From positions 1,612,001 through 1,676,000 of the forward strand of contig NW_025964362.1 of the NCBI RefSeq assembly GCF_023055435.1: DNA of 64,000 nucleotides. The letters run 5' to 3'. Below the pieces are notes generated by a model. That model saw only the letters and a list, made by a program, of their open reading frames with translations, was not told the origin of the DNA and ran no database searches. The stretch's first letter is position 1. Each line of letters opens with the position of its first letter. This document shows, piece after piece, positions 46,904 through 64,000 of this stretch. Source of the stretch: Haliotis rufescens (taxonomy: Eukaryota). The position numbers and the translations under genes are program-made.

Positions 46904-47388
46904 ATTGAAAGAAGTCGCCGTTACCTGGTCGGCGATGTGGTAAACAGACACGCTACTCAGGCGAAGTACACTGTCACAAGCGTATTCGTAATAGTCGTGC
47001 TAATGATCATGTGGTTAGATAGCTCAGATTACGCGGTCTAATAGTGTATACACATCCCACTTCCTGAACAGGTCCATACAACGTGAGAAACACGACAGCG
47101 CATCACGAAGCTTTCTGTACCCGGAACAAATGTCACGAGTGTTGAGTCACCTGTTGTATTGTAAGAAACTGTTGACTGTGACGATGTTTTGACCTACTTT
47201 CACAAAGGATACTATGAACTCTGACCTCTTGAAATTGAGTCCTTAACTTTGGCCAACATTCCTCAGTTATGCCCCTTTACTACTTCGCCAATAGATGGCG
47301 CCAAACGCTACGGTCCTGCGCGTACTTCCGGTATATTACGCGTTTCATAGATATTTGCACGACCAACAACTACAACGAAGTATTTACG

Positions 47389-50300
47389 ATGCCTTCGACG
47401 TGCTGCTGTGTCCCGGGATGCTGCAATCGAGGTGGTTTGTCGTTTCCGAGAGAACCTTTGTTGCTGAAACGATGGTTGATTGCTATTCGGAGGAGCGACG
47501 AATCAAACCAAGGCAAGATGTGGAAACCGTCACCTCACAGTGTTGTGTGTCATTCCCACTTCAGACCGTCTGATTTCATTGCTGTAACTAGTTATGGTAA
47601 GATATTTGGGTAACTTGTTATGTTTCTATTCGTTGGCAGATTTAATTAACGTGCATGCCAATTATATTTGTTATATTTTCTTGCATTGAAATTACGAAGA
47701 GGGTTTTACGTGACTCAGAAATGTGTATCCAGTATGCAGAAATGTGAAGAATGGACGCAGACAAAATAGAATATGTTCCGTCCCGCGGGACACACTTATT
47801 TTCACAGATAGTTTGATTTTGTCATTGAGTTAAATTGAGTTCAGATTCTTAAAACTTCGAAGTGTGTGATTTTTTTCACAATAATTTTAGTTCCCTCCTG
47901 TCAGAGTAGGCGAGTAAATTTGAGTATTGGCTAATTCTAATGTAATCACGTTTGTGTGTGTTTGCATGTGAACCTATGAGTATATTTCATTGTTTTTTTA
48001 AAACCAAGATAGAAATAATGTGTCATTTAGGCCCTACTATAGTAGCCATTTTTTTGCCAGTCAGTGATCATGGTGATGTTTAGGTTTGACCCTCATATAT
48101 TTCATGCACGGGCCTTTGAAATCAATTACTGGGGGTCTAGTGCATACCCAGTTAATTACGGTAAAACCCTGTTTACCACCATTATATTCCTGTTTATGAA
48201 GTTGTTGATGTTTGACCATAACCCTTCTTAGTTTTCTTCTTTTATTTGTTGAATTGATGATTACCAGGAATGTCAACACATATTTGACGTTTTTGCCTTT
48301 AACCCTCTGGCTGCCACCTAAAAATAGCCTGTGTACTATCGCTGTGCCGAGTTTATTTGCGAGTGACGTTCTGGAAACTGCACACTTTCGTCTAAAAACG
48401 ACGTAACGTAACAACGATAAAACCCACAATTTTCAAATTTCACACTATAACAGCACAACCATTTCCCTAACTGTCTATGTAAATATTGTAAAGCATTAAC
48501 GTTATTAACAGTAGTTTATAGCTCGGCAAACGTATTGAATATGCGATTTTTTACAAAATGTCCATGGCGGCTGTTTTGTTGACATTGCGCACTGGATACT
48601 TTGAGCGTCTTGTCAGGTTGTAAATCTCCACCAATGTAAAAACCAAAAACATTATGCGAAAGCCCGTTTGTTTCCCGATTACCGTGTTGAAAATGAAACA
48701 TCTCGGTGGAAAATCGTCCGCGAAATCGTCGATTACGAATTTGTTCAAATATGTGTGACGCCATTTTGTCTGTAAATTAGTGAAATTGTAACGTTATCGT
48801 TTGCATATCATGTCGGAAAAAGCATATTAATGAAAAAACTATTTATGAATAAGGAATAAAATCTTATCCCTAAAATCTGTGGTTTATTACCTACATGCTG
48901 ATATAAATTGTAACGTGTAACCTTAGCTATGAAATTCAAAATTACGTACTTTTAGAAAGAAGAGAACGAAATCGCATTTCAAACTAAAACTTATACGCGG
49001 TGTTGTGTTTTCTTCATTGCAATAAATGATTTTTCTTTTCGGTCATTATTCATTTTTTAGTAAGAAAATCATACCATGTAATCTGCAAAGAACATGCCCT
49101 TATGCATGGCATATTTTTACTTTTCTTGCACCGAAAGGTATTCCTCACGGCCCATGTCAATCAGTTCACTGTAAATACTCCTACCAGGCGATGGCGGACA
49201 TGTCCATTTGCACGTCGACAAAATTTGCATACAGACGATTGAACGAGTTAGTCTCGTATCTTTATGAATCCTTAATAACGTTGTTTTATTTTCATTTTTA
49301 ACTAATAACGATTATACAAACACAAAACAATAAAAAAAATCACATGAAGTAGAAACAATACGAAAATGCCTTTTGTGTTGTCGACAGCTTTAGTTTTGAA
49401 TATTTCAAAATGTCGTCGACCGTGTTCAGCGGTGTTTGGGATTTTGGATTTACTATAACATCTTTGACAGCAACCGAGATAGTAAGTACATTTGAACATC
49501 ATTCTGTAAGCAAACCTTAGTGTTCTAGTGATGGTCTGAAATCTGTCGTAATTTGGAGATGATAAACGCATTGATTCATCAAAGATTCAAACGTTGCGAT
49601 CTGGTCATATTTTCCCGATTTCCATCTCCGTCCCTGCTTACATCAGCAGCCACTGAGTGACCACCAAGCAGTATTAAAGACATGGATCCACTGATCACAA
49701 ACCCAAAGGAACTGTATTAGCTAACATTTATTACAGTCAGATGGATGTATATGCGATTTTTGTCATGAAATGTTCAAAGTATAATCAAAATTGATCTCGA
49801 TAATTAATCTTTCTTTCGGGAACTTTTTGACGAATGATTTCCATGGCGATGTGGTAGACTAGCTGTTATGAATACCATTATCCGAAGTATATTTCAACGG
49901 ACATTTAATACAAATCAAACCATGTATTCCTGGTACTGTTTGACGAATTTGAAAAAAAGGTAATCTATGAAGAATTTGTAAACACCAAAAGGCACAGGTT
50001 ACCCGCTCGAAAAAAACGGGCATCATTTCAGATTTGCGCAAGCCGTAACAAATACGTTCACGGCTTGCTGTCTTCTCTCACGTCCGCGCTTGCTCGTGGC
50101 ATTTACCGCTAAAATTTATGGATAACATTATGTCTGTTGAGCGAACTTTATCAGAATACGTTACGGCAAAGACGTGGCAATTGTCCAATAGTCCTTGCCA
50201 AACTGACCAACAGTTAAGGTATAATACAGACAAGAAGAAATTTTCAATTTTTAAGGGTTTATCATAATATGGACTAGAAGTAAAAAGTTTCTTTAGTTGT

Positions 50301-53300
50301 GTAGATGTATGTAAGTCATTGGTTATGATAACATTGGAGAATCGATTTCCATATATCAATTAATAATTAAAATGTATGCTTACATATGCATACATGAATA
50401 ATCTGTGAACATTTTTGAATATTTTGTTAATATTCCAGGGGAACAACCACACTTTCATATGGCTGTAATTTGAAATACTTTAGAAAATTAATTCTTATTC
50501 CAAGGTCCTTACTGTTATACTTACTGTCCTTAATGTCCTTTATTTAATATTTTGAAAAGTATCATCAGTAAAAAATCGTGTAACTGTTTAAATGAGATAT
50601 ATAAGACAAATGTACAAATCTCTCAATCTATACATATTTATTGACAGTATTTACATGTGAATAATATATAAACTTTGTACAATAAAGTTTTAAAAAAAGG
50701 CCGCATCTTAGCTGGAATACTGCTGAAAGCGGCATGAATCATACTCACTCTATTTACATGAAGTACATAATTGTGAACAAAAGATCAATAATCCATATAC
50801 AATGAATCGCCACGAATTAACTGGAATATTGTAAATGTGGCGTTGAATCATACTCACGCACCAACATGTCCTTTTATATATACACAAATCCATTTTCTAT
50901 TTACAGTAAATATATATAATATATATCATTAATGGAATTTAATCTATTTACAATTAATCGCTGTGATGTTGCTGCTATATTGCAAATACAGCATGGAGTC
51001 ATACTCTCACAGATATATCCTGAAATATACAAATAGAGTATTTACAGTAAGTACCAATATACAATATATACAATCTATTTACAAAGATTCGCTGCGATGT
51101 TGCTGGAATATTGCAGATGCAGTGGGAAGTCCTACTCATAAACAGATCCTTACATACACACAATAATTACATGTACAATAAATAGAGAACATAATATGAA
51201 CATATGTACCTTAAACTGCCATATTTTTGCGGGAATATTGCTAAAAGAGGCATAAAACAAACTCACTTCTTTACAATAAGTACATAATCATATACAATAG
51301 ACAATGATCTATTTACAATAAAATCGCCATGATGTTGCTGTTATATTGCAAATACGGCGTTAGGTCATACTCTCTCACAAAAACATCCTTTAATATATAT
51401 ACACACATATGAAATATTTACAATAAGTACATATATACAATATATTTTATCATCTATTTACAAAGATTCGCTGCAATATATTTTATCATCTATTTACAAA
51501 GATTCGCTGCAATGTTGCTGGAATATTGCAGATGCAGTGGGAAGTCCTACTCATAAACAGATCCTTACATACACACAATAATTACATGTACAATAAATAG
51601 AGAACATAATATGAACATAAGTACCTTAAACTGCCATATTTTTGCGGGAATATTGCTAAAAGAGGCATAAAACAAACTCACTTCTTTACAATAAGTACAT
51701 AATCATATACAATAGACAATGATCTATTTACAATAAAATCGCCATGATGTTGCTGTTATATTGCAAATACGGCGTTAGGTCATACTCTTTCACAAAAACA
51801 TCCTTTAATATATATACACACATATGAAATATTTACAATAAGTACATATATACAATATATTTATCATGTATTTACAAAGATTCGCTGCAATGTTGCTGGA
51901 ATATTGCAGATGCAGTGGGAAGTCCTACTCACTCACTAGTTATTTACAATGAAGCACACAGATGGGGAAACTGCTTGAAGGGTTGATATGATGGAACATG
52001 AGTCATGTTCCATCATATGCCAGTACACACAGCCTTTCACTCTTCAATGTGATCAGCTGTGTGATACTGACGGAAACAGCGTGCACAGAGGCCAATGTGG
52101 CAGTCAGGACACCAGGTCCTGACCTTTCCTGCAGAGCCATCGATGGCCCTCTGTCTCTTTCTGCAGAGAACACACTGTTTCCTCTTCCCTTCAGGCAGCA
52201 CTTCTATGAAGTGACGTCCAGTCAGTCGTCGGGAAGGAGGCTGGGTCCTGGGCCTGCCAGTCCTCCTCTTCACCTGAGTGTTCCCGACGAGTGAGTGGAG
52301 AAGGGACATGTGGAAGTCCAGACGGGAGGTCGTTCTACCATGGGTGTTCAAGAATGTCTGATAGGCATTAACTGAAATGAAATGAGTATGAAACATTAAA
52401 ATCAAACATTATGAAATAGCTGTTCAGAAGATAAGGTTCACGTTGATTAATCAGTACAATGAAAATACAATGGAAGTGGTACCAGATGCGAAATTATTCT
52501 GTTATTGTATTCAGTTCATGCCATTTGTTACATATTGGTTGATATTATCAGGATAATGACTGTATAGTTGGTAGTAATGACATAGGTCTAGAATTATAAG
52601 TTATTCCTAAATTCCTTGATACCTAATTATTTTATTCTGAATTTCATATAAATAAAATAATTCTTACCTGATGCTGTGAGAAGAAAGTTGATTAAAACTT
52701 TCTTCCACAGCTTCACGGAGCGGACTTGGGGATCATAGACACCAATGAGTTGATCCCCAAGGTCAACTCCCCCCATTAGGGTGTTGTACAGTCAAACGAC
52801 TGAGGGGAGAGTGACAGACCGGCCCCGTGAGTTAAGCCCATCCTCCATTCTGTAAATAAAATATTTCATATTAATTTTTTCAGAAACATGCACATAGAAT
52901 CTCTATATTCTTTTCATCTTTATGAAAAATTTAAAGTAATTGACACTCATCAAAGCGAACATGTATGAAAGAAAATGGACACTTGGAGTAGGAATCATAC
53001 TGACAGCATTATAAATTGGCACTAGTCCTATAAGGACTATTAGAAATGTGCCTTCTTTAACAATGTTTAAGGGTTTTGCTCTATGTTATTAGTATGTGAC
53101 TAGTGGACTGAAACTGTTAGTTTCTAACGCTGCTGAACAATGAACAGGATATTGAGCAGTATATTACTATTTTGAATTTACCTTGGACTACCCATGGTAG
53201 AAAGGATTGTGAAGACCTTCCTGTCTGAAAAGAGCACTGCCAGCAGTGGACCCTGTCTTCTCACATGAGAGTTTGATCCATTCACAAGATCAAGAACCGG

Positions 53301-56300
53301 CCTGATCTTGTGGAGGGGGTCATGATCTGGCTGCCCTCGGGGCACTGCAACAGAGTTGTCGTTGCAGTGGAGGAACCGCATGATGACTTGGAAGCGATTC
53401 CTCGGCATGATCCCCCCGAAGGAAGGTGTTGATGCCAGCCAGTTCTTGTCCCCCTCATTCCAGTAGGAAGCGATGGTTGGCTTCCTGACGACACCCATGG
53501 CCAACAAGAGTCCAAGAAATGCCCGCATTTCTTCCCGGTCAACGGGTCTCCACGCCCGAGCCCTGCTCTGCGGTGATAGAGTGCGGCCCTGCAGGTACTG
53601 CTCAGCATACCTGTTTGTCTCCCTGACCAGCAGGTCGAACAAATCAACACCTCCATCCCCTCCTCTGAGTTGCTGGTCGAAATAGCTTATAGGAGGGGCA
53701 TGGTAATCTGAAACATATATCATAATGTATGACCACATGAATTATTATTAATCGTGCTGACACATATCATCATACATGTACATATAATGATAATCGCAAT
53801 ATCATACAGCTTATATCCACATTTATAACTAAACATCTAATTAACCTTGTGAAATATAATATGAAACAATTCCTTACTCAGTTTTGGATGACAGGCATTG
53901 TCTATGTTGATTATTAATTCATGCACTTAATGATATGTTTATTTATCAATTCCTGTTACCTGGAGGGTTGACAGGGCCGCACTCCTCGGCAAAGTCAATG
54001 CTGTTGCCGAGGTCAAAGCTGTCCGTGTCCAGCACGGGCAGCCAGGGGCCACGGACCATTGGTTTGGCCCCTGCCTCTTCTTCAGTCTCATGATCTGAAA
54101 TTTGAAATAATGAAATTTGAAATAATGTTTCTTATTAATAACAATCACATATAACAGTGCTAAGGGAAAGGATTCCTTATTATAGGGTTTTGCTTTACGT
54201 TATCATTATAATATATGGACTAGTGGACAGGGGTAGAAACTAACAAGTTTTGTCCATTAGTCCTCATGATGATAACATACAGCAAAACCTTAAAATTGGC
54301 CAATTTCTACTAGTCCTTAGGATACCTTTACCATTGGGCAGTTTGGTGAGGACTACAGGACTAGTGCCAATTTCTAACGCTGGTGGACTAAAATGTTTTT
54401 TTCTATCGCTGCATTTGCAAATTTTCATGGATGTTTCTTATCATAACTGGAACTCACCAACTGCTGACTCATGTTTTATTATAATTTATTGATCAAGGGG
54501 AGATAATTTGATTTGTTAATGTCCCTCTCCCTTGAATGTACTCCCATTTTGCAAATTGCTTCATGGAAGTTTGTCATTTCTCCAATGTATTTTATGTTTG
54601 TTATCAATCTTAAATTTCAATAAAAATATATTATATATATACACATAGACCTATAGACATATATTTAGTTTATTGAAGGAACTTTTTCAGACCCTGTAGA
54701 TCCAGTGCATATTTTACAACACAGTATCAATAATCATGTGGCAACTTTATTTTCATCAAGACTAATATTTTGCTTTTAATTAATATGTATACCCTTTGAC
54801 CTTTTTAGTTTCAGTACAGATTGAACATGTTGAAAGACTTATTCTTCATTACTACTAGATAAAGATAAGATTAGGATAATCATATCATTATGTGCACCAC
54901 ATGAATTTATTAATGACAAATGAAGGGCTTCCTTGAGTAGTCACAGGGAAACAGTTGTGTAATCATGACACAAACATTTTCAGGGTTAGAACTAAAATCA
55001 AAAGCTTTACAATGATGGTAAATTTTCATAAAAAAATTGGCCATAGCTTCCGCGGCTCCGGGCTACCTGCCCGGTGAGGGAAAATTTGTTCAGTGCGCTG
55101 ACCCCCCAACCCATTGGCGCAAGGACAACAGTCACTTGGTGCAATGCCACTCCCCTTTCCCCTTAGTAAGTTATAATAAATATTAATCTACATCCTCAAT
55201 GATATATCAATAACAATTTACATTTAAAATGTATGACACATATTCATTTATTTTTAATATTTCAAAATAAGTAAGACCTTTCAGATTTATGAGGACTGAC
55301 ACATTATACTCCTTTAAAAATATGGCTTCAGGTCCAAAGTGTGAACTAGTGTGTCCTTCAAGATAAATTTAATTTTTAACAAAGACATTTTTCCATTAAT
55401 ATTACTGCTTACTGCACTTTAGCAAACGCACGTGTAGGCCACATATTGACATGTTAAAATTTCACTACCATGAGAGCCTTTCTTTCAACATGTTCAAATC
55501 ATTTCTAAGATTCATATTTCATGAAATACTTAACAAGGAAGTTGGCTGTTTCTACTATGTCGATCATGGTATGGTAGATATTTTTAACATTTGAAACATC
55601 ACAACTGTCAAGAGTACATCTAGCCATACAATTTCGAAAATTGCAAAAACATAACAAATTCCTATTCCCGCCATTGGTTTGGCACTGACAGTACACCTAC
55701 TCAATTATTAATGAAACTGAATTAATGTTACTTACCGCTTATCTCTTCCTGGGAGTCGGACTCGGAGTCGGAATCGAGAGAATCGACTGATATGTCCGAC
55801 TCGAAGTCCGACTCCCCCAAATCATCGTCGTCTCCAACACCAACCGCTGACATGATCTTTGTTGAAGGACAGCTTCGATCGCAATGTTGTCGTCTGTCAC
55901 ATGGGGCTATTTTTATCCCGATGAATATTCATGCTCTCGGCGGGAGGCGAACGTTTTTTAAAATTTGATTTGTGTTAATCGCGCTGATTCGATAAACAAA
56001 GCACGAAGATAAAGATTAAAGCATATAATGTATAAATATTTACATTGGATGTCATATTTAACACTGTTGGTGATTTCAACATCGAACTTTGTTTTGTTTT
56101 ACTCGGGCACCTGTAACCTCTGTGACGTGTCATGTCAAAGGTCGCGGGTCACGGTATTTCGTTCCAGACGAACAATCGGAAATTTGCCGCTCTTGCCAAC
56201 CCCGTTACGGTGGATGATTGAAACCAAATACTGTCGATAACCGTAACAGCTTCATTTGTTTTCGTGAAATAAAAAAACTTAGTCTTGCAATAATAATAAG

Positions 56301-59161
56301 GTATTTAACAATAACAAACCGCATGAATACAAAATTTACATACTTACATTAAACGAAAGATTATTAATAATTTAGTAATGAATTCTACTGTCAAAGAGCT
56401 AGCTATTTATATTTAGACAAACGAACTAATAATAAATATATAGATTCATCGGGGACCGGTATTCAAGTAATTTTAACTGACATTTACACGTTCATACTTC
56501 AACATCAAATAGTTCTTGTTTATATACTTATATAACCAATAAATTATAAATATATTCGACACTGCATAAATTCCTATGTGCCGTTGCTACCAACCTACTT
56601 TTCAACGTCTTTTAATAAATTGACACGCCTCATTAAACATACGAAAACGTGACTTACATATAATCAGTCACAAAGCATGAACAACACAGACCCAAAAGGG
56701 TGTGTCAACGTTTATCATGTGCGTTTTCGTTTCTTCTGGGAGACATGCTTTCGACTTTTTTTCTCTCATGAAAAGTACCGCTAAGCGACCTTCAACTTCG
56801 GTCGCCATTTTGTTTTAAGTTTCGGCTAAAAAGTTGCGGTACCTTTTCTGTGTTTTTGCAGAATTTGAGGTTCAGGAAGCATGAATGGAATTTCTAAGTA
56901 TACGTATGAATATGAGAAGTGGCACATTTTCACACAAACTGTTTTTTACAGATGACAGTAGGTATGTATAACTGTATGAATGTTTTTGAATACGCTTTGA
57001 TATGAATGTGATGTACGAGGCCTTGAACAAATACTGTAAAAAAATAATATACACTCCATTCACCATCGATAAACTGGGCATTTAGTTGGTTTCATTAGCT
57101 AATTAATACATAGATGCGTAGATATTTGACCATTTTCAATCTTTTAACCAAAATATTTATGAAGGTTTCAAACATTCCTTCGCATGTGGATTTTCAATCA
57201 GTCGGTGCAATTTGTTAGAAATGAAAAATATTTCAATGGCGGCACATTTGAACGAAAGTGTAAACAAGGGGAATTTGACTAACTCCATATGCGTTATTTA
57301 TTGACAGTAGAGTTGTGAAAATGACACAGATGTGTTGGAAATTTACTGCTTTTTGCGATGTTGCAATTGCTATGGGCTTGGGGTAATCCAAAAATATTTT
57401 ATTTCAATTCTTTCAACATGATGTTTCAGAAGGACATATATGTCCCTCTGGCACAGCAACTGCGTTTTGTGTAGGGACATATATGTCCAAATGGCATCCA
57501 GGGGGTTAATGCATCATGTTACATTTTCCTGCAGGTGCTTGTTTTCCACAGAGATGAGGCACAGATGATTCAAGAATACAGGTTCATGTTTGTTCACTTT
57601 TGATATGTATTTGTCAGAACAGTGTCATGTGTACGTGTTGAACTTGAAGACACTTCTCTGTATCAGGCATTATATGTATGTAATGTTGAGACTATATCTA
57701 CGAAAATTGTCAGCTAATTTATATCATAATTTTCCTTAATTTAAATGTTTGTTTACTTTTCTAATGTATTGATGTGTATCACTATTATGTTCATAATGTG
57801 ACAAAACATATCGTGCCCATAGAAATTTTTTCTTTCCCTGCAAATTAACTTAAATCTAATCATAAAAAGCTATATCACAACTGGTAGTAAAAAGATTGCA
57901 CAATATCTGTTTGGAAAATAATAATCTACTGCTGTTTTCCCCAGGGTGTACACCTCTGAGGAAACAGAGAAAACCAGATGCTGTACCATCAATCTTTCCC
58001 TGGACTGCATCAGCCAACGCACTTGAGGCCGATGGAGGCTTAAGGAAATCCCGCATTGAAAGACGTGAGAGTCAAAAGAGGACATTTAAAGCAATGGATA
58101 CAGATTGTGATATTGAATGTGATATCAGTAAGGTAGCTGGGGAGGAAATAATTGACAATGTTGAGTTTGATGACATGAATACCGACTTAAACATTTGTTC
58201 TGCAGATAGTGCAGAGGTTGAATATGAAAGTACATCAGCTCAGACAGACAAATTTCCAATGCTTTCAATACAAAGTATTATGTTTAATGCTGCAGCAATT
58301 TTGTTTTATACAGGACTGTCAAACTATACAGACTTCACCTTTGTACTTGCAAGTTTGGGTCCGTGTGCATATCACCTAAATTATTTGTACAGCAAAGTTG
58401 ACAGTATGACTATCAGTGTGGAAAATCAATTGCTTTTAACACTTATGAAACTGCGCCGACATAAGACTAACTTTGAACTTGGTCTTCATTTTGGAATTTC
58501 AGAGAAAACTGTATTAAATGTATGGATCACCTGGGTAAATTTTATGTATAGACAGTGGAGTGAGCTTGATAACTGGCCAGAACGAGACTTAGTGCACTAT
58601 TTTTGTCCTTCTGATTTCAAATCCAAATTTCCATCCACACGAATTATCATTGATGGTAATGAATGCCCTATCCAGAAACCAAAACGCCCCATAGCTCAGC
58701 AGTCTACCTACTCAACGTATAAAAATCGAAATACTATCAAAATACTTGTTGGATCCACACCAGGTGGTCTTGTGTCGTATGTGTCTCCTGCGTATGGTGG
58801 CTCCACGAGTGATCGTCAAATAGTAGAGCGTAGTGGTTTGACAGTGATGTGTGACCCAGGAGATGGTATTATGGCCGATAAAGGTTTCAACGTACAAGAT
58901 ATTTTTGCATCAAAAGATGTTACCATTAATATGCCAACATTCTTCTCAAAGAAAAACCGTATGTCTGGCAAGACTGTTATGCATGATAGGAAAATATCAA
59001 GCAAAAGAGTTCACATTGAACGTATTATTGGTCTGGCAAAAACATTCAAAATACTTACTGAACCTCTTAACAGTTCAGAAACCAAATTAGCCACAGAAAT
59101 AACCACGGTTTGCTTCATGCTTTGTTCTTTCAAAAAGTGCATTGTTCCCTCTACTTGCTAA
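47389..59161 (+). CDS. THAP-domain Harbinger/ISL2EU-type DDE transposase (2 exons: 47389-47596, 57945-59161; 474 aa)
   Basis: Exon 1 encodes MPSTCCCVPGC..FP..W...I.R...VCHSHF (THAP C2CH). Donor G|GTAAG and acceptor TTTTCCCCAG|GG join in phase 1 and restore the THAP AVPSIF motif. Downstream are the HTH (QLLLTLMKLR...FGISEKTV) and the DDE motifs IIDGNE, GGSTSD, MADKGF, RVHIERIIG. Confidence 0.9.
50690..51950 (+). repeat. Higher-order tandem repeat inside the piggyBac (~130-bp SINE-tail-like monomers arranged in ~380-420-bp trimers)
   Basis: TATTTACAAAGATTCGCTGC.ATGTTGCTGGAATATTGCAGATGCAGTGGGAAGTCCTACTCA recurs at ~51075, ~51491 and ~51869. Each monomer contains a GCTGGAATATTGC...GGCG...ACTCAC-like motif. 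Confidence 0.85.
52037..55853 (-). pseudogene. piggyBac transposase (PGBD4-like) pseudogene, 5 exons
   Basis: Exons 55853-55736 (acidic N-terminus, start tentative), 54094-53960, 53707-53182, 52849-52668, 52371-52037, all with GT-AG junctions in phase. Motifs: ETNRYA, EMRAFLGLLLAMG, MPRNRFQVIMRFLH, YN..MGGVD, and the C-terminal Cys-rich domain CVLC...CPDC...LC..CF..YH. The catalytic core is deleted and there is a TGA at 52792-52794. Confidence 0.88.
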
Positions 59162-61219
59162 TCATATTGGTTAGCAAATCATTAAAAATATCTTTCATTC
59201 CAGTCGGACGTTAGTCAGACGTAGAGTATGGAGATTTGTTTCTAATTTCTTTCAAAAAGGCCTGTTATTTGCGTTTGCTACATGATTAAAGATAATTGTT
59301 GCTAAATATTCATGAGGATAAAGTTGAATGTAACATGTTATCGATTATGTATCATGTTGAGACTAGAATGGGAATCTGTGGTCAAAAAGCAAGTTTGAAG
59401 CAAATTTACCATTTGTGCAGCCACAATCAATCATACTCTTTTGTCAAGGTACAAACATAAATGTGTTAGTATCAGAGATTATGATAATGTAATGCTCAAC
59501 TTCCTGTTCAATGTGGTGTTAAACCCAACTCACTCACTGAATTTGTTTTAAATTTATGACATCAGTAACATGAATTTAAGAATGTTGACATTGTTTGGTG
59601 CGTACTGTTACATTATCCCCTGCCACAAAGTGGGAGAGACACATTTCTTGTCTGAGCATAATTCGGAAACTGTTTCATATGTTATTATGAAACTTGGCAC
59701 ATGTATCAAACACAAGTTGAACTGGTGCCCTTTCCTGTTTTCCATGGCAGCAATTTGGATTAAACCCAAATACTGGTTGCTTTTATTTCACGAACTTAAA
59801 ATCTGAATAAGTTGAAGTGTATATTTCTGGATCATATATCCATTATATTTTCAATGGATACATGTTTACTGAGAAACAAATTGTAATTAATTGTCCTAAG
59901 TTAGGAGGACCATGTTTAAATCTGTTACTTTGTGCATTGTGGCTGTAATGAGGACAAAATTCTAATGTGTCCCATGGCTGTGTATTCTTCATATGATACT
60001 GGCAGCAGCTAGACCTGTCCAGATATTTGGCACATCTTAGTGCTGTTGCTTCAGCTCTCTCAGATGTTATAAAAGGCAATCATGACAAGCAAGAAGTCAA
60101 TGACAATGTTTTTTTATCATTCCCTCAAACAGTTCAGCTGCAGATAATAATCACATGACAGTTGTAATTCCTCAGATATAGAGCTGAAGGAGTATGCTTC
60201 AAGCAGTGATGATATTTATGAGTATGGACACTGAATTGTGATTATGTATTGCACTGTAGCTTCATCTATATTTAGATCTTCCAACTATTAACTACTGGAG
60301 TACTTAACAGATGGTTGCCATTGTCACAAAAGGAGTTAAAAGTTAATGTCACATCAATACTATTTCAGCCATATAGCGACGAGACCAAGTTGATATACAC
60401 AATTTACTCATGAATGCAAAGGTATATTTAACAATATCATTTATACAGTTTTAAAACACAGGTTATAGGCCATCAGAAACCAAAGCTAGGCCACCTCGCC
60501 GGGGATCATGGGGACTTACGGTGCCTCTGCTTCCTGCACGATACCCCAGCAGGATTTATGTCATTAACTAAGCCACTGGTGGTTGTGCTCAATACTAGCC
60601 AGTCAGCAATGATGTCAGTTGATTATAGCATCACATCAAATTTAAAAACAGGCAATTAATGATTCACATACATATTTAGATTATTTTTTTTTACAGACCA
60701 TTTTTTCTTTCAAGTAGTTGATAATGAGGTGCCTGGTCATATAGTACTGTAACAGTAAGTACGAACTGACATCTGAGATTGTATTTATTTAGACTAGTGA
60801 ATGCATCCATGTATGGGACCAGTGTGTACGTTGTGATTTTTAGATTATCCAACTTATAACTACTGGAGTGATTAAGAGATGGTTGCCATTGTCACATAGT
60901 ACTGTAACAGTAAGTACTAAATGTCTTAATAAACATCTGAGATTGTATTTATTTACACAAGTGAATGCATCAATGTATGGGACCAGAGTTCAACCTGGTT
61001 TTGTCTGATGCAACTCTTTTCACGTCAACATGCATCTGGTGAAATATCATCCTTAAATGGAGCCCTGCAAGTTTTTTCATAACTTTTTGTTTGTGAATGT
61101 CCATACATGTATATGCAGAATATAATATGTTCAGCATTAAACATTGAGACTACAATTCTGTCTTTCTTGTTTATAGGGCTGATGACCATTGACACATGAG
61201 TATCAGCAGTAACTGAAAT

Positions 61220-62654
61220 TTACCAGGAATACCTGTCATAATCTCTGAAATAGAATTTGTCAAGTAGTGCCTTTTTGAAAAAGGTGTCATAAAATGCCAC
61301 AAGTTTTTCAACCATAGATTCAATGAAATGGTCATCTCGGGATACAGTAAAATATTTCAAATCCTTCATCGTGTATACAATAAAAATGCACTGTTTTCTA
61401 CCAGTACAGTAGAGCTGCCCTTGCACTTGAAAGAAATATGGCTTGCTTTTGTCAAGGGTAAGTTTTCCCTCAGATACCTTCAAATAGGGAACAGTTATCT
61501 CAGAGATTAGACGGTCTTTAGATGCAAATGGACATTTCGCTTCAATGGTAGTATCATCACCGAGAAGTGAATCTGGTGAAGCTGCGAGAAATGGATGAAC
61601 ATCTGACACAAACATGCCACATGGTGAGGTTTTGAAACCACTTGACTTTTCAAAAGCTTTTATTGCCACCTTTTCATATTTTCTGCCATGTCTAAGTGGT
61701 GGACTTTGAATGTCCTCGAAAGGCTTAGTCATTGATCTAGCAAGTTTATGAAAATCAGTTTTGTCTGTTGCCAAACAAATTTTCCCAAAATTGGAAAAAG
61801 AAATTCTCTTTGTGTGTTCAGTTTTCCATTCCTCGCTCTTTGACTGTTTATGGGTTATTATTTCAAGGTTGGTTTTGTCCATATCTGATATTTCTGATAT
61901 ATTCTGGGATTTCAGGTATTGGTCAGCTAAAGATAACTTAAGATAATCATGATCATGATTAACAGCAAATGGATTTGCTGGAGGAAACATTTGAGCAACT
62001 GGAAATGTATTGACACTAGGGTGGTTCAACCAAACATTGCGGAAAAAGTCAGGGTAATTTGGCACTTTGCGATACTGAACTGGTCGTGGGTCAAATATAA
62101 CATTCAGTTCACTGTTGCATAAATCAAGGTCAGTCGCCTTTATGGGACTGCCCCTATAGGGTTTACTTTTATGAAATGTTTGCAATCTTTGAGTACATGT
62201 TTCTTCAGTTAAAACATCGCCAGTTGTTGAAAACTTGTGCATAGCATATAACACTGCACAAATATGTTTGCAATGTCCTGATGGACCCTGGCCTGCAGCA
62301 CACTCACACTGCCCCTCCACAACAGAACCATCGTCATCAATTGCAACATCGACTTTGTAAGTCACATGCTTCTTCATTTCAGCACAGCACTCAGACTTCA
62401 GGAAACACATGTTATTAGGTTTTGAATAACGGAAAAATTTCAAAAACCTACTGGTGTACAGATTCTTTGAACTTGAACCAAGTTTCTTCTGAAAAGGCTG
62501 TAAGTAATAATTTATAGCTTCATATGCTAAAAAAGGAAGATGACTGTCACCATTTACATCCCTATAAGTTTCAACTAGGGGCAGTGTCATTTCAAACTCA
62601 GCTTCAAGTTCTGGCTCTCTCCCAAAATTGCAGTTTCGGTCATAGCTCTCGAGT
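61220..62654 (-). CDS. SWIM zinc-finger + YqaJ/lambda-exonuclease-like PD-(D/E)xK nuclease; large terminal exon, upstream exon(s) not identified
   Basis: SWIM motif CECAAGQGPSGHCKH. YqaJ motifs QSKSEEW...RIS.S.F, G...E, FLAASPD, IEAKCP, YFFQVQGQL. Likely acceptor TTTTTCAG at 62655; the provided ORF extends in frame to 62827 through AT-rich intron-like sequence. Confidence 0.9.
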
Positions 62655-63200
62655 CTGAAAAACATTTGAAATAAACAACTGTAAAAGAAAAAACCTAATT
62701 GAAAAAAATCACTGCAAAATATATGGACTATTAAATTATTTTTGGAGTACACAAATGTCTTAGTTTCCATTTTGTCAAAAAGTACAATTATTTTAAGAAC
62801 AGATCCCTGTAACTCCAAAGTCAACAAATCAGTATTTCTGTCAGTAAGGAAGCTTAAGCCATCTCTGTATTGTTATCAGTACTAAAACTTGACTTTTGTA
62901 CAGTAATAATATCTTTACTTGCACTATAGTAATTGTATATAATTTTTTTTGTTAGAAAACAAACAACATATAATAATACGGATATTAATTTTAACACAAG
63001 AATAAGACATTGTGTCACAAAATAAAAATACATGCAGTGAATAAGGATTCTTGATGTGTTTGCCTTCGACCGGAATCGAACCGATGTCTAAAGATTACTC
63101 TGTTAGACTACCATTCAAAAGCTTCATTACATCTAATTTTAATATTAGAAATATAAACGCTGTTATGCACATCAAAGTATGGACCCATCATACTTGTGAA

Positions 63201-63360
63201 GAAATAATAAATGTGTGAACCTTTCACACCTGTGGATGAAATAATAAATGTGTGAACCTTTCACACCTGTGGATGAAATAATAAATGTGTGAACCTTTCA
63301 CACCTGTGGATGAAATAAAAAATGTGTGAACCTTTCACACTTGAGGATGAAATAAATGTT
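63201..63360. repeat. 37-bp minisatellite (~4.5 copies) with further scattered copies at 63640-63745
   Basis: Unit GAAATAATAAATGTGTGAACCTTTCACACCTGTGGAT at 63201, 63238, 63275 and 63312. Confidence 0.92.
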
Positions 63361-64000
63361 CTAGGTGAAACGATACAGGGAGGTCACATCACAGTACATT
63401 AGGTCACATTTTTTTTGTCAAATTGTGTTGAAACTTCTTGACTAAATATTTCAGAGCAGGTTCAAAAGTAAATTTCTAGTAGTGAATTTGAAATGCTAAT
63501 TACATCATATTTGCAGTACTTGACTGACACTTGGGTGTCATAAAACAAGTAGTAAGAAACTTAATTTAGCAAGTGTAAAAAAGTACTGTGTATCATGCAT
63601 GAAAACTTGATGCACCAGTGCACCAATGTATCGTTTCAGCCCTAATAAATGTGTGAACCTTTCAAACTTCTGGCTTTAATAATAGATGTGTGTACCTTTC
63701 ACACTGTTGAAATAATAAATGTGTGAACCCATCACACTTGCTAAAATAAATAAAACTATATGAAAATCTAAAAGGCACTCCCTGTAAAGGACGATGAACT
63801 TGATAACCCTCAGCCTTTCTTCAGCCATCGGATGGTGCAGAGCTCAAGCAATTGTAATGTTTTACAAATATTTCAGTACCTACCTCACGCTTTGTTACAT
63901 CATGTTTTGGCCACAGATGAATCACAATTCCAAATATGTGTATAGAAACGAAGAAAGGGACGGGGGCATTATGATTATTTAAGATACATTTTTGGGGACT

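Follow-up and report, generated by a model that had tools for sequence, protein, structure and literature searches.

Transposons of the ISL2EU (IS4EU) kind are already known to carry a characteristic pair of genes (PMC4482050; PMC4122938; PMC9179366), and in the available portions of PMC4482050 they are described as duplicating AT at the target, ending in terminal inverted repeats (TIRs) that start with GG and encoding a YqaJ protein in their second open reading frame (ORF2). Excerpts of PMC4122938 place them as the sister group of Spy, separate from PIF/Harbinger inside PHIS, and PMC12730594, likewise available in part, is a further source on classification. Among described members, partial records give ISL2EU_DRer, with proteins of 475 and 515 amino acids (aa) and a TIR of 14 bp, and the oyster ISL2EU_CGig families. 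Here we report on a stretch of 64,000 nucleotides from the abalone Haliotis rufescens (contig NW_025964362.1, positions 1,612,001 to 1,676,000, forward strand; "the window"), which holds a damaged copy of a new abalone family of this known kind of element, itself host to a second transposon. The parts of the element that define it are the following.

47251 to 64000 in the window and on to 64852, plus strand: ISL2EU element, bounded by alignment breaks against its siblings
47251 to 47263, plus strand: left TIR, 13 bp, GGCCAACATTCCT
47389 to 47596, plus strand: transposase exon 1, with most of the THAP zinc finger (Pfam THAP, E 2.4e-11); GT donor present in 12/12 siblings
57945 to 59161, plus strand: last transposase exon, with the end of THAP, the helix-turn-helix (HTH) and the DDE core (D306, D381, E428) (HTH_Tnp_4, DDE_Tnp_4)
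61220 to 62654, minus strand: nuclease exon 2, with SWIM (C148, C150, C160, H162) and the YqaJ/lambda-exonuclease domain (D393, E403, K405), from Pfam
62655 to 64000, minus strand: segment of the nuclease intron (1.9 kb in all); a 37-bp tandem repeat at 63198-63382 varies in copy number
L011:2688-2594, minus strand, beyond the window: SAP exon of the nuclease (Pfam SAP, E 1e-8)
L011:2840-2852, beyond the window: right TIR, 12 of 13 bases as in the left TIR, then AT

The alignment with sibling copies breaks off at both ends of the element, at 47251 and at 64852 in extended numbering (L011:2852; G000:C584:1676852), 852 bp beyond the window end. A preliminary description of the window had set the left bound at 47271, which is corrected by these data, whereas the extension past 64000 that it proposed recovered the right TIR and the upstream SAP exon. 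The element measures 17.6 kb with a nested piggyBac and about 8.3-8.4 kb without it. The 13-bp TIRs, GG-initial and with a single mismatch in the window copy, occur at the left and right ends of every one of the 13 full copies. Twelve of these are full-length siblings of 7.9-8.7 kb; four copies on C57 have the same flanks and were counted as one insertion, leaving 9 independent sibling insertions. AT is duplicated on both sides in all 9 (and at the left in 12/12 full siblings), with the outer base fitting A|AT|T in 16 of 18 sibling flanks. The window copy is flanked by TT at the left and AT at the right, and its target duplication is imperfect.

An AT duplication within A|AT|T, TIRs starting with GG and falling in the 6-259 bp range of ISL2EU, a THAP-HTH-DDE protein in ORF1 and a YqaJ protein in ORF2 inside the same TIRs together make it nearly certain that this is an ISL2EU element of the PHIS superfamily. 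The preliminary description had already made this assignment, and TIRs, AT duplication, gene pair and gene orientation all bear it out; its placement in the PIF/Harbinger group, with YqaJ replacing Myb/SANT, was looser, given that ISL2EU is the sister of Spy and lies apart from PIF/Harbinger within PHIS according to the portions of PMC4122938 available. The closest named proteins, 97-98% identical, come from Haliotis, in keeping with the animal hosts of ISL2EU. When the transposase, the nuclease and each end were used as DNA queries, the same dispersed loci were retrieved at 96-100% identity, and since dispersed copies are 96-99% identical, recent mobility is implied by comparison of the copies. 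Two sibling copies on G000:C112 have both frames whole. The four C57 copies (G000:C57:21.83-22.15 Mb) are broken and, with their identical flanks, represent a segmental duplication, and the copy at C357:206-218 kb has its 5' half partly duplicated in tandem.

Joining 47389-47596 directly to 57945-59161 yields a transposase of 474 aa in an open frame, with Pfam matches to THAP (E 2e-11), HTH_Tnp_4 (E 4e-13) and DDE_Tnp_4 (E 3e-36), as the preliminary description had proposed. This protein is a conceptual splice, as RNA-like contigs gave another, stop-containing splice that is considered below; bivalve homologues are collinear with the direct join. The two exons are separated by 10.3 kb because of the piggyBac in the intron. 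Among 94 aligned proteins the catalytic residues are kept in 94 (D306), 94 (D381) and 93 (E428).

On the opposite strand, 62654-61220 encodes 477 aa without interruption (Pfam SWIM, E 5e-4; YqaJ, E 4e-14). The preliminary description had put this SWIM and PD-(D/E)xK exon at 477 aa or more, and the SAP exon past the window, which joins it in frame, completes a SAP-SWIM-YqaJ nuclease of 509 aa. The join is based on Pfam, splice signals and database models, and 6 of the 10 members of the nuclease database cluster are also 509 aa long; SAP was found again in nuclease homologues from bivalves, gastropods, annelids and moths. In an alignment of 100 of 118 hits plus siblings, D393 is kept in 98, E403 in 98 and K405 in 99 of 100 proteins, and the SWIM ligands in 97-99 of 100, so that the claim of retained catalytic residues stands for both genes. 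The stop codons of the two genes are 2,058 bp apart and the genes lie tail to tail, again as previously described (about 2 kb). A 433-aa database model, P0248, has the private residues of the window copy together with the SAP exon, and continues after about residue 424 with a different short tail, which suggests alternative splicing or a modelling artefact.

The co-occurrence and dN/dS analyses that the preliminary description had called for were both carried out. Protein searches of the genome, in which 89 of 228 and 133 of 251 candidates were scored and whose locus counts are therefore lower bounds, placed a transposase match within 15 kb of 64 of the 76 merged nuclease loci (60 convergent, 4 scored as divergent, 12 with none), where about 0.3% per locus would be expected by chance. 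Viewed from the other gene, 65 of 117 transposase loci had a nuclease match nearby. Metagenome loci (n = 77) included 23 with at least 2 kb of downstream sequence, and 17 of these 23 carry the nuclease, 16 of them on the opposite strand. Two readings that would have separated the genes are ruled out: they are not independent ORFs lacking shared TIRs, as they co-occur and share TIRs, and the nuclease is not a single-copy syntenic host gene, as it is multicopy.

Comparison of three related metagenome elements at dS 0.9-1.4 gave dN/dS values of 0.04-0.05 (transposase) and 0.16-0.20 (nuclease), with frames containing stops, short matches and pairs with saturated synonymous sites in the transposase left out. 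Within the young family, changes common to at least two of 10 copies were 11 synonymous and 5 replacement in the transposase (P 7e-5) and 8 synonymous and 8 replacement in the nuclease (P 0.009), against roughly 21% synonymous expected; this test omitted the private transposase changes of the C25 copy, where a 0.4-kb deletion was mis-mapped, and three of the four duplicated C57 copies, which were also left out of the exon-conservation counts given below. By these substitution patterns both genes are under purifying selection, and co-occurrence with the transposase plus selection on both genes indicate that the nuclease is likely needed by the element.

A profile search with the nuclease returned LHK-Exo (E 3e-22) and lambda exonuclease (E 5e-17) as the best solved relatives, and the same two led a fold search (E 3e-10 and 2e-9, respectively) with the predicted structure of an intact sibling's protein (pLDDT 90, pTM 0.67). 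The weaker matches included herpesvirus SOX/ORF37, in one case as a complex of SOX with RNA, and the EBV alkaline nuclease. They provide some ground for the least probable of the functions that we considered, in which the nuclease would act in counter-defence or self-limitation by degrading RNA or excised linear elements, as the alkaline nucleases of herpesviruses, which have the same fold, cut RNA. Nevertheless, these matches have E values of about 1e-3 to 1e-4, far weaker than those of the phage recombination exonucleases, and SAP is a DNA-binding module.

From what is known of DDE transposases, the THAP-HTH-DDE protein binds the TIRs, cuts the element out and integrates it at A|AT|T. Our tentative preference, to which we give somewhat less than an even chance, is that the nuclease resects the ends of the donor break after excision, favouring homologous repair and copy gain. 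The SAP-SWIM part would keep the nuclease bound to DNA or close to the transpososome, and digestion 5'->3' from the double-strand break would be the work of the lambda-exonuclease fold; the resulting 3' overhangs could then be repaired from the sister chromatid or homologue, the element being copied back, and cut-and-paste would thereby become a net gain of copies. Such a role fits the nuclease fold and the selection data. Among related enzymes, SXT-Exo is a trimeric, processive 5'->3' exonuclease of double-stranded DNA, and in the lambda enzyme Arg28 binds the 5'-phosphate and aids processivity (PMC3118119, available portions). The whole abalone family has His312 at this position, where Arg is found in 92 and His in 6 of the 100 aligned proteins; this is a natural variant bearing on 5'-phosphate dependence.

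Several points weigh against end resection. Because of His312, long processive resection is less certain in the abalone lineage, judged from the alignment; the full copies found number only 13, giving no indication of unusual amplification; and 52 of the 117 transposase-like loci, a set that includes fragments and distant families, have no nuclease match nearby. Furthermore, no experiment on any ISL2EU nuclease was found in the searched literature, which left out most subscription papers.

Some of the same observations would suit a nuclease working within the transpososome, where it would trim the non-transferred strand or flanking DNA, or process an integration intermediate, and without which transposition would fail. 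Consistent with this rival are the tight co-inheritance of the two genes; trees of 16 paired proteins that broadly match, weak support given that kin share history; a histidine at the Arg28 position, which would suit short, non-processive trimming; and, from the available text of PMC9587614, the KolobokE elements. The paired trees were built without six near-identical rows and with the elements unnamed; they share their main clades and differ in some branches, and relatedness alone could explain the agreement. We consider a transpososome role unlikely. Most elements of Spy, the sister of ISL2EU, have a single ORF (PMC4122938), and native Spy transposases show activity (PMC11304231), as far as the available parts of both sources go. 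By analogy, PHIS chemistry can probably run without a nuclease, and the nuclease would likely act beside the core cut-and-join steps. In addition, the precise 2-bp duplication in 9/9 independent siblings is the product that a DDE enzyme makes unaided.

The second protein might instead be mainly a DNA-binding scaffold acting through SAP and SWIM, in the manner of the Harbinger Myb/SANT protein, with nuclease activity secondary. The Harbinger partner binds both TIRs and transposase, and both genes are needed (PMC9179366, available portions); SAP is also found in homologues from molluscs, moths and annelids, and conservation of the SWIM ligands is as stated above. Yet the catalytic Asp, Glu and Lys are as conserved as the zinc ligands, for which a purely structural role has no need, and this makes the scaffold improbable. 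With ends, target site and both gene models defined, the abalone family provides a clean system in which to test what a transposon gains from a lambda-type exonuclease of its own.

The stop-containing splice of the transposase depends on a small exon.

57535 to 57581, plus strand: 47-nt cassette (poison) exon with a stop in the THAP frame; GT..AG joints in contigs aligned to sibling L089; identical in 12/12 siblings

Splicing was read from contigs of three runs (X1, X5, X9), whose RNA status was guessed and whose tissue is unrecorded, aligned to the intact sibling L089; reads could not be assigned to the window copy specifically. GT..AG joints connect exon 1 to the 47-nt exon in X1 and X5, and the 47-nt exon to the last exon in X5 and X9. 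Both joints have a depth of 92-94 in X5, equal to that of the last exon, and an unbroken X1 contig of 1,825 bases runs from the 47-nt exon through the second intron, which is thus retained. The direct join of the transposase was absent from 15 of 25 joints, those listed, although contigs drop rare forms and the join could be present. The transposase cluster in the database contains 8 models from two abalone species; at 200-355 aa they are all too short to take in THAP, and the four that were inspected start downstream of it. Searching proteins with the THAP exon as query gave a single 71-aa contig product and no peptide of the stop exon, and a small-RNA run (2026) placed 2 reads on the stretch; neither result is informative.

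The stop lies seven codons into the 47-nt exon, ahead of the end of the THAP domain. Under the 50-base rule, a stop so close to an exon junction does not trigger junction-dependent decay, and since this one is only 24 bases from the next junction, no such decay is expected. The exon is not a missing coding exon, as it has stops in two frames and the third starts an unrelated short frame; the bivalve homologues collinear with the direct join contradict a coding role as well. Two overlapping start/stop ATGA motifs occur 11 bases apart within it (57554-57568), chaining three short frames, none of which runs on into the transposase.

On these data the 47-nt exon is real and lineage-specific, and regulation through it is a hypothesis. 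We give about an even chance to its being a functionless cryptic exon, from tissues that transcribe the element loosely. The scope of the evidence (three runs of guessed RNA from unrecorded tissue, with the direct join possibly among the joints beyond those listed) leaves room for this reading, as does a comparison with 25 more distant elements, 24 of which lack any recognizable sequence counterpart of the exon in the corresponding intron and one of which gives a marginal match; in many of them an intron interrupts THAP at about this position. In a copy of 85% identity, moreover, 4 of 22 intron windows are conserved as well as the exon. Conservation closer to home argues the other way: over 9 independent young copies the exon has no variable column, compared with 1-25 in each of 22 non-overlapping intron windows, and in the decayed C46 copy it is the least changed of 23 windows, and both of its splice sites are preserved. 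Also against a cryptic exon are the X5 depth on the exon-containing path and the failure of any abalone database model to reach THAP.

If the exon is functional, transposase output could be limited by its inclusion or by intron retention, and the 474-aa enzyme would be made only when it is skipped. A fuller proposal, which we regard as doubtful, is that this ISL2EU lineage has a splice switch of its own, in which a selected poison exon within THAP silences the transposase in most cells, production of the SAP-SWIM-exonuclease continues, and skipping in the germline or under stress frees transposition. A THAP transposon of another superfamily would then provide a second and independent example of P-element-style control, and splice control of DNA transposons would extend beyond the P element. 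In practical terms, a naive transposition test may fail because genomic transcripts appear to include the stop exon.

Of 13 copies, 4 have both frames open, the window copy among them, and 7 have an open nuclease frame. The window copy has four private replacements in each gene. The preliminary description had suspected drift from the motifs IDGNE, SPDS and RISFS. Among copies of equal length (5 transposase and 6 nuclease frames), IDGNE and RISFS are indeed private to the window copy, as is EAK, found in 2 of 100 nuclease homologues. T308N alters a column that is Thr in 94/94 aligned transposases, and S318F introduces a bulky residue where 100/100 nucleases have Ser, Ala or Thr, so that drift holds for these two changes; at transposase G377, 91 of 94 aligned proteins have Ser. 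SPDS, on the other hand, is common to all six nuclease frames and to database relatives, and for that reason does not by this comparison represent drift. Taking together T308N, S318F, the piggyBac in the intron and the imperfect left duplication, the window copy is probably impaired.

48299 to 57509, minus strand: nested piggyBac with its TTAA duplication (element 48303-57505); a single TTAA is present at the siblings' empty site; Pfam DDE_Tnp_1_7 and zf-Tnp_2

This second transposon, of 9.2 kb, has a TTAA duplication, TIRs starting with CCC, a DDE_Tnp_1_7 transposase and a C-terminal cysteine-rich domain, which we take to be the hallmarks of piggyBac. About 750 bp of the catalytic core are deleted at 53265-53274 by comparison with 3/3 full-length relatives, and from this loss the copy is judged non-autonomous. 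Its relatives have a multi-intron transposase gene, with full copies near 9.95 kb, and each of its ends has approximately 40 or more matches in the genome, some 100% identical; the family is, on sequence identity, young and abundant. The insertion point is 25 bp upstream of the 47-nt exon, likely in its branch-point region. The 3' part of the piggyBac contains a degenerate array of 110-150-bp repeats with a 415-bp duplication (50666-51964).

To the left of the ISL2EU element, an ABCA3-like gene for a lipid transporter (match to ABCA3 in the structure bank, E 6e-11) has its first coding exon running downward on the minus strand from 46903, head to head with the transposase. As this exon starts 347 bp from the left TIR, the insertion sits in the probable promoter or 5' region of that gene.

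An automatic TIR search at 27 other loci found A-AT-GG ends in 4, all of one family, though many of the windows searched were probably too short. A second ISL2EU-like family in the genome (L181-L184) has perfect, GG-initial 14-bp TIRs, AAT flanks and lengths of 4.9-8.2 kb. At another ISL2EU-like locus (L197:2341-8434; G000:C117:66001-76000) a YqaJ exon on the minus strand lies between THAP-like and DDE exons on the plus strand, and the DDE exon is in turn flanked by the nuclease's SWIM and YqaJ exons, so that the antisense genes appear interleaved; this layout comes from one locus, and similar spacing is seen at C2:32729315, C334:24761481 and C556:23024659.

Compared with known systems, the abalone element resembles ISL2EU in its A|AT|T duplication, short GG TIRs, THAP-HTH-DDE protein, YqaJ ORF2, animal host and similar protein lengths, and the end of ISL2EU-2_Pxyl shares 10 of the first 13 bases of the abalone left TIR. 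It differs from other ISL2EU elements in being longer (8.3 kb versus a mean of about 4.8 kb) and in its long introns. The literature searched, much of it available in part, makes no mention for ISL2EU of SAP or SWIM domains, which Repbase entries may describe, of an intron inside THAP or of a 47-nt stop exon; neither a functional nuclease test nor a poison exon in an ISL2EU-type element was found in that literature, with most subscription papers outside the search. With PIF/Harbinger the element has in common a DDE_Tnp_4-type transposase and two genes, but PIF/Harbinger makes a 3-bp TWA duplication and has a Myb/SANT partner, in place of the 2-bp AT and nuclease partner found here, and membership was rejected. 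Spy, the sister clade by published transposase phylogeny (excerpted), shares an AT-rich target; it mostly has one ORF, mostly no zinc finger and no duplication, and the element was excluded from it by its AT duplication, its second ORF and a target other than AAA|TTT. KolobokE also combines a transposon with a lambda-exonuclease-like nuclease (PMC9587614, available portions); Kolobok, which the preliminary description had raised as an alternative home for the nuclease, was rejected as the sole TTAA duplication at the locus is that of the nested piggyBac.

The nuclease shares its fold and PD-(D/E)xK site with lambda exonuclease, LHK-Exo and SXT-Exo, and unlike them it is fused to SAP and SWIM, has no annealing-protein partner gene in the element and carries His at the Arg28 position. 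For the splicing, the nearest precedent is control through the third intron (IVS3) of the Drosophila P element. The P element too encodes a THAP transposase, and unproductive splicing of most of its pre-mRNA limits the amount of active enzyme (PMC7776569, available portions). It belongs to another superfamily, and its mechanism is retention of the third intron, yielding a 66-kDa repressor; in the abalone element the cassette exon would instead end the protein within THAP. For P such regulation has been demonstrated, and the resemblance hints at P-like control in the abalone element.

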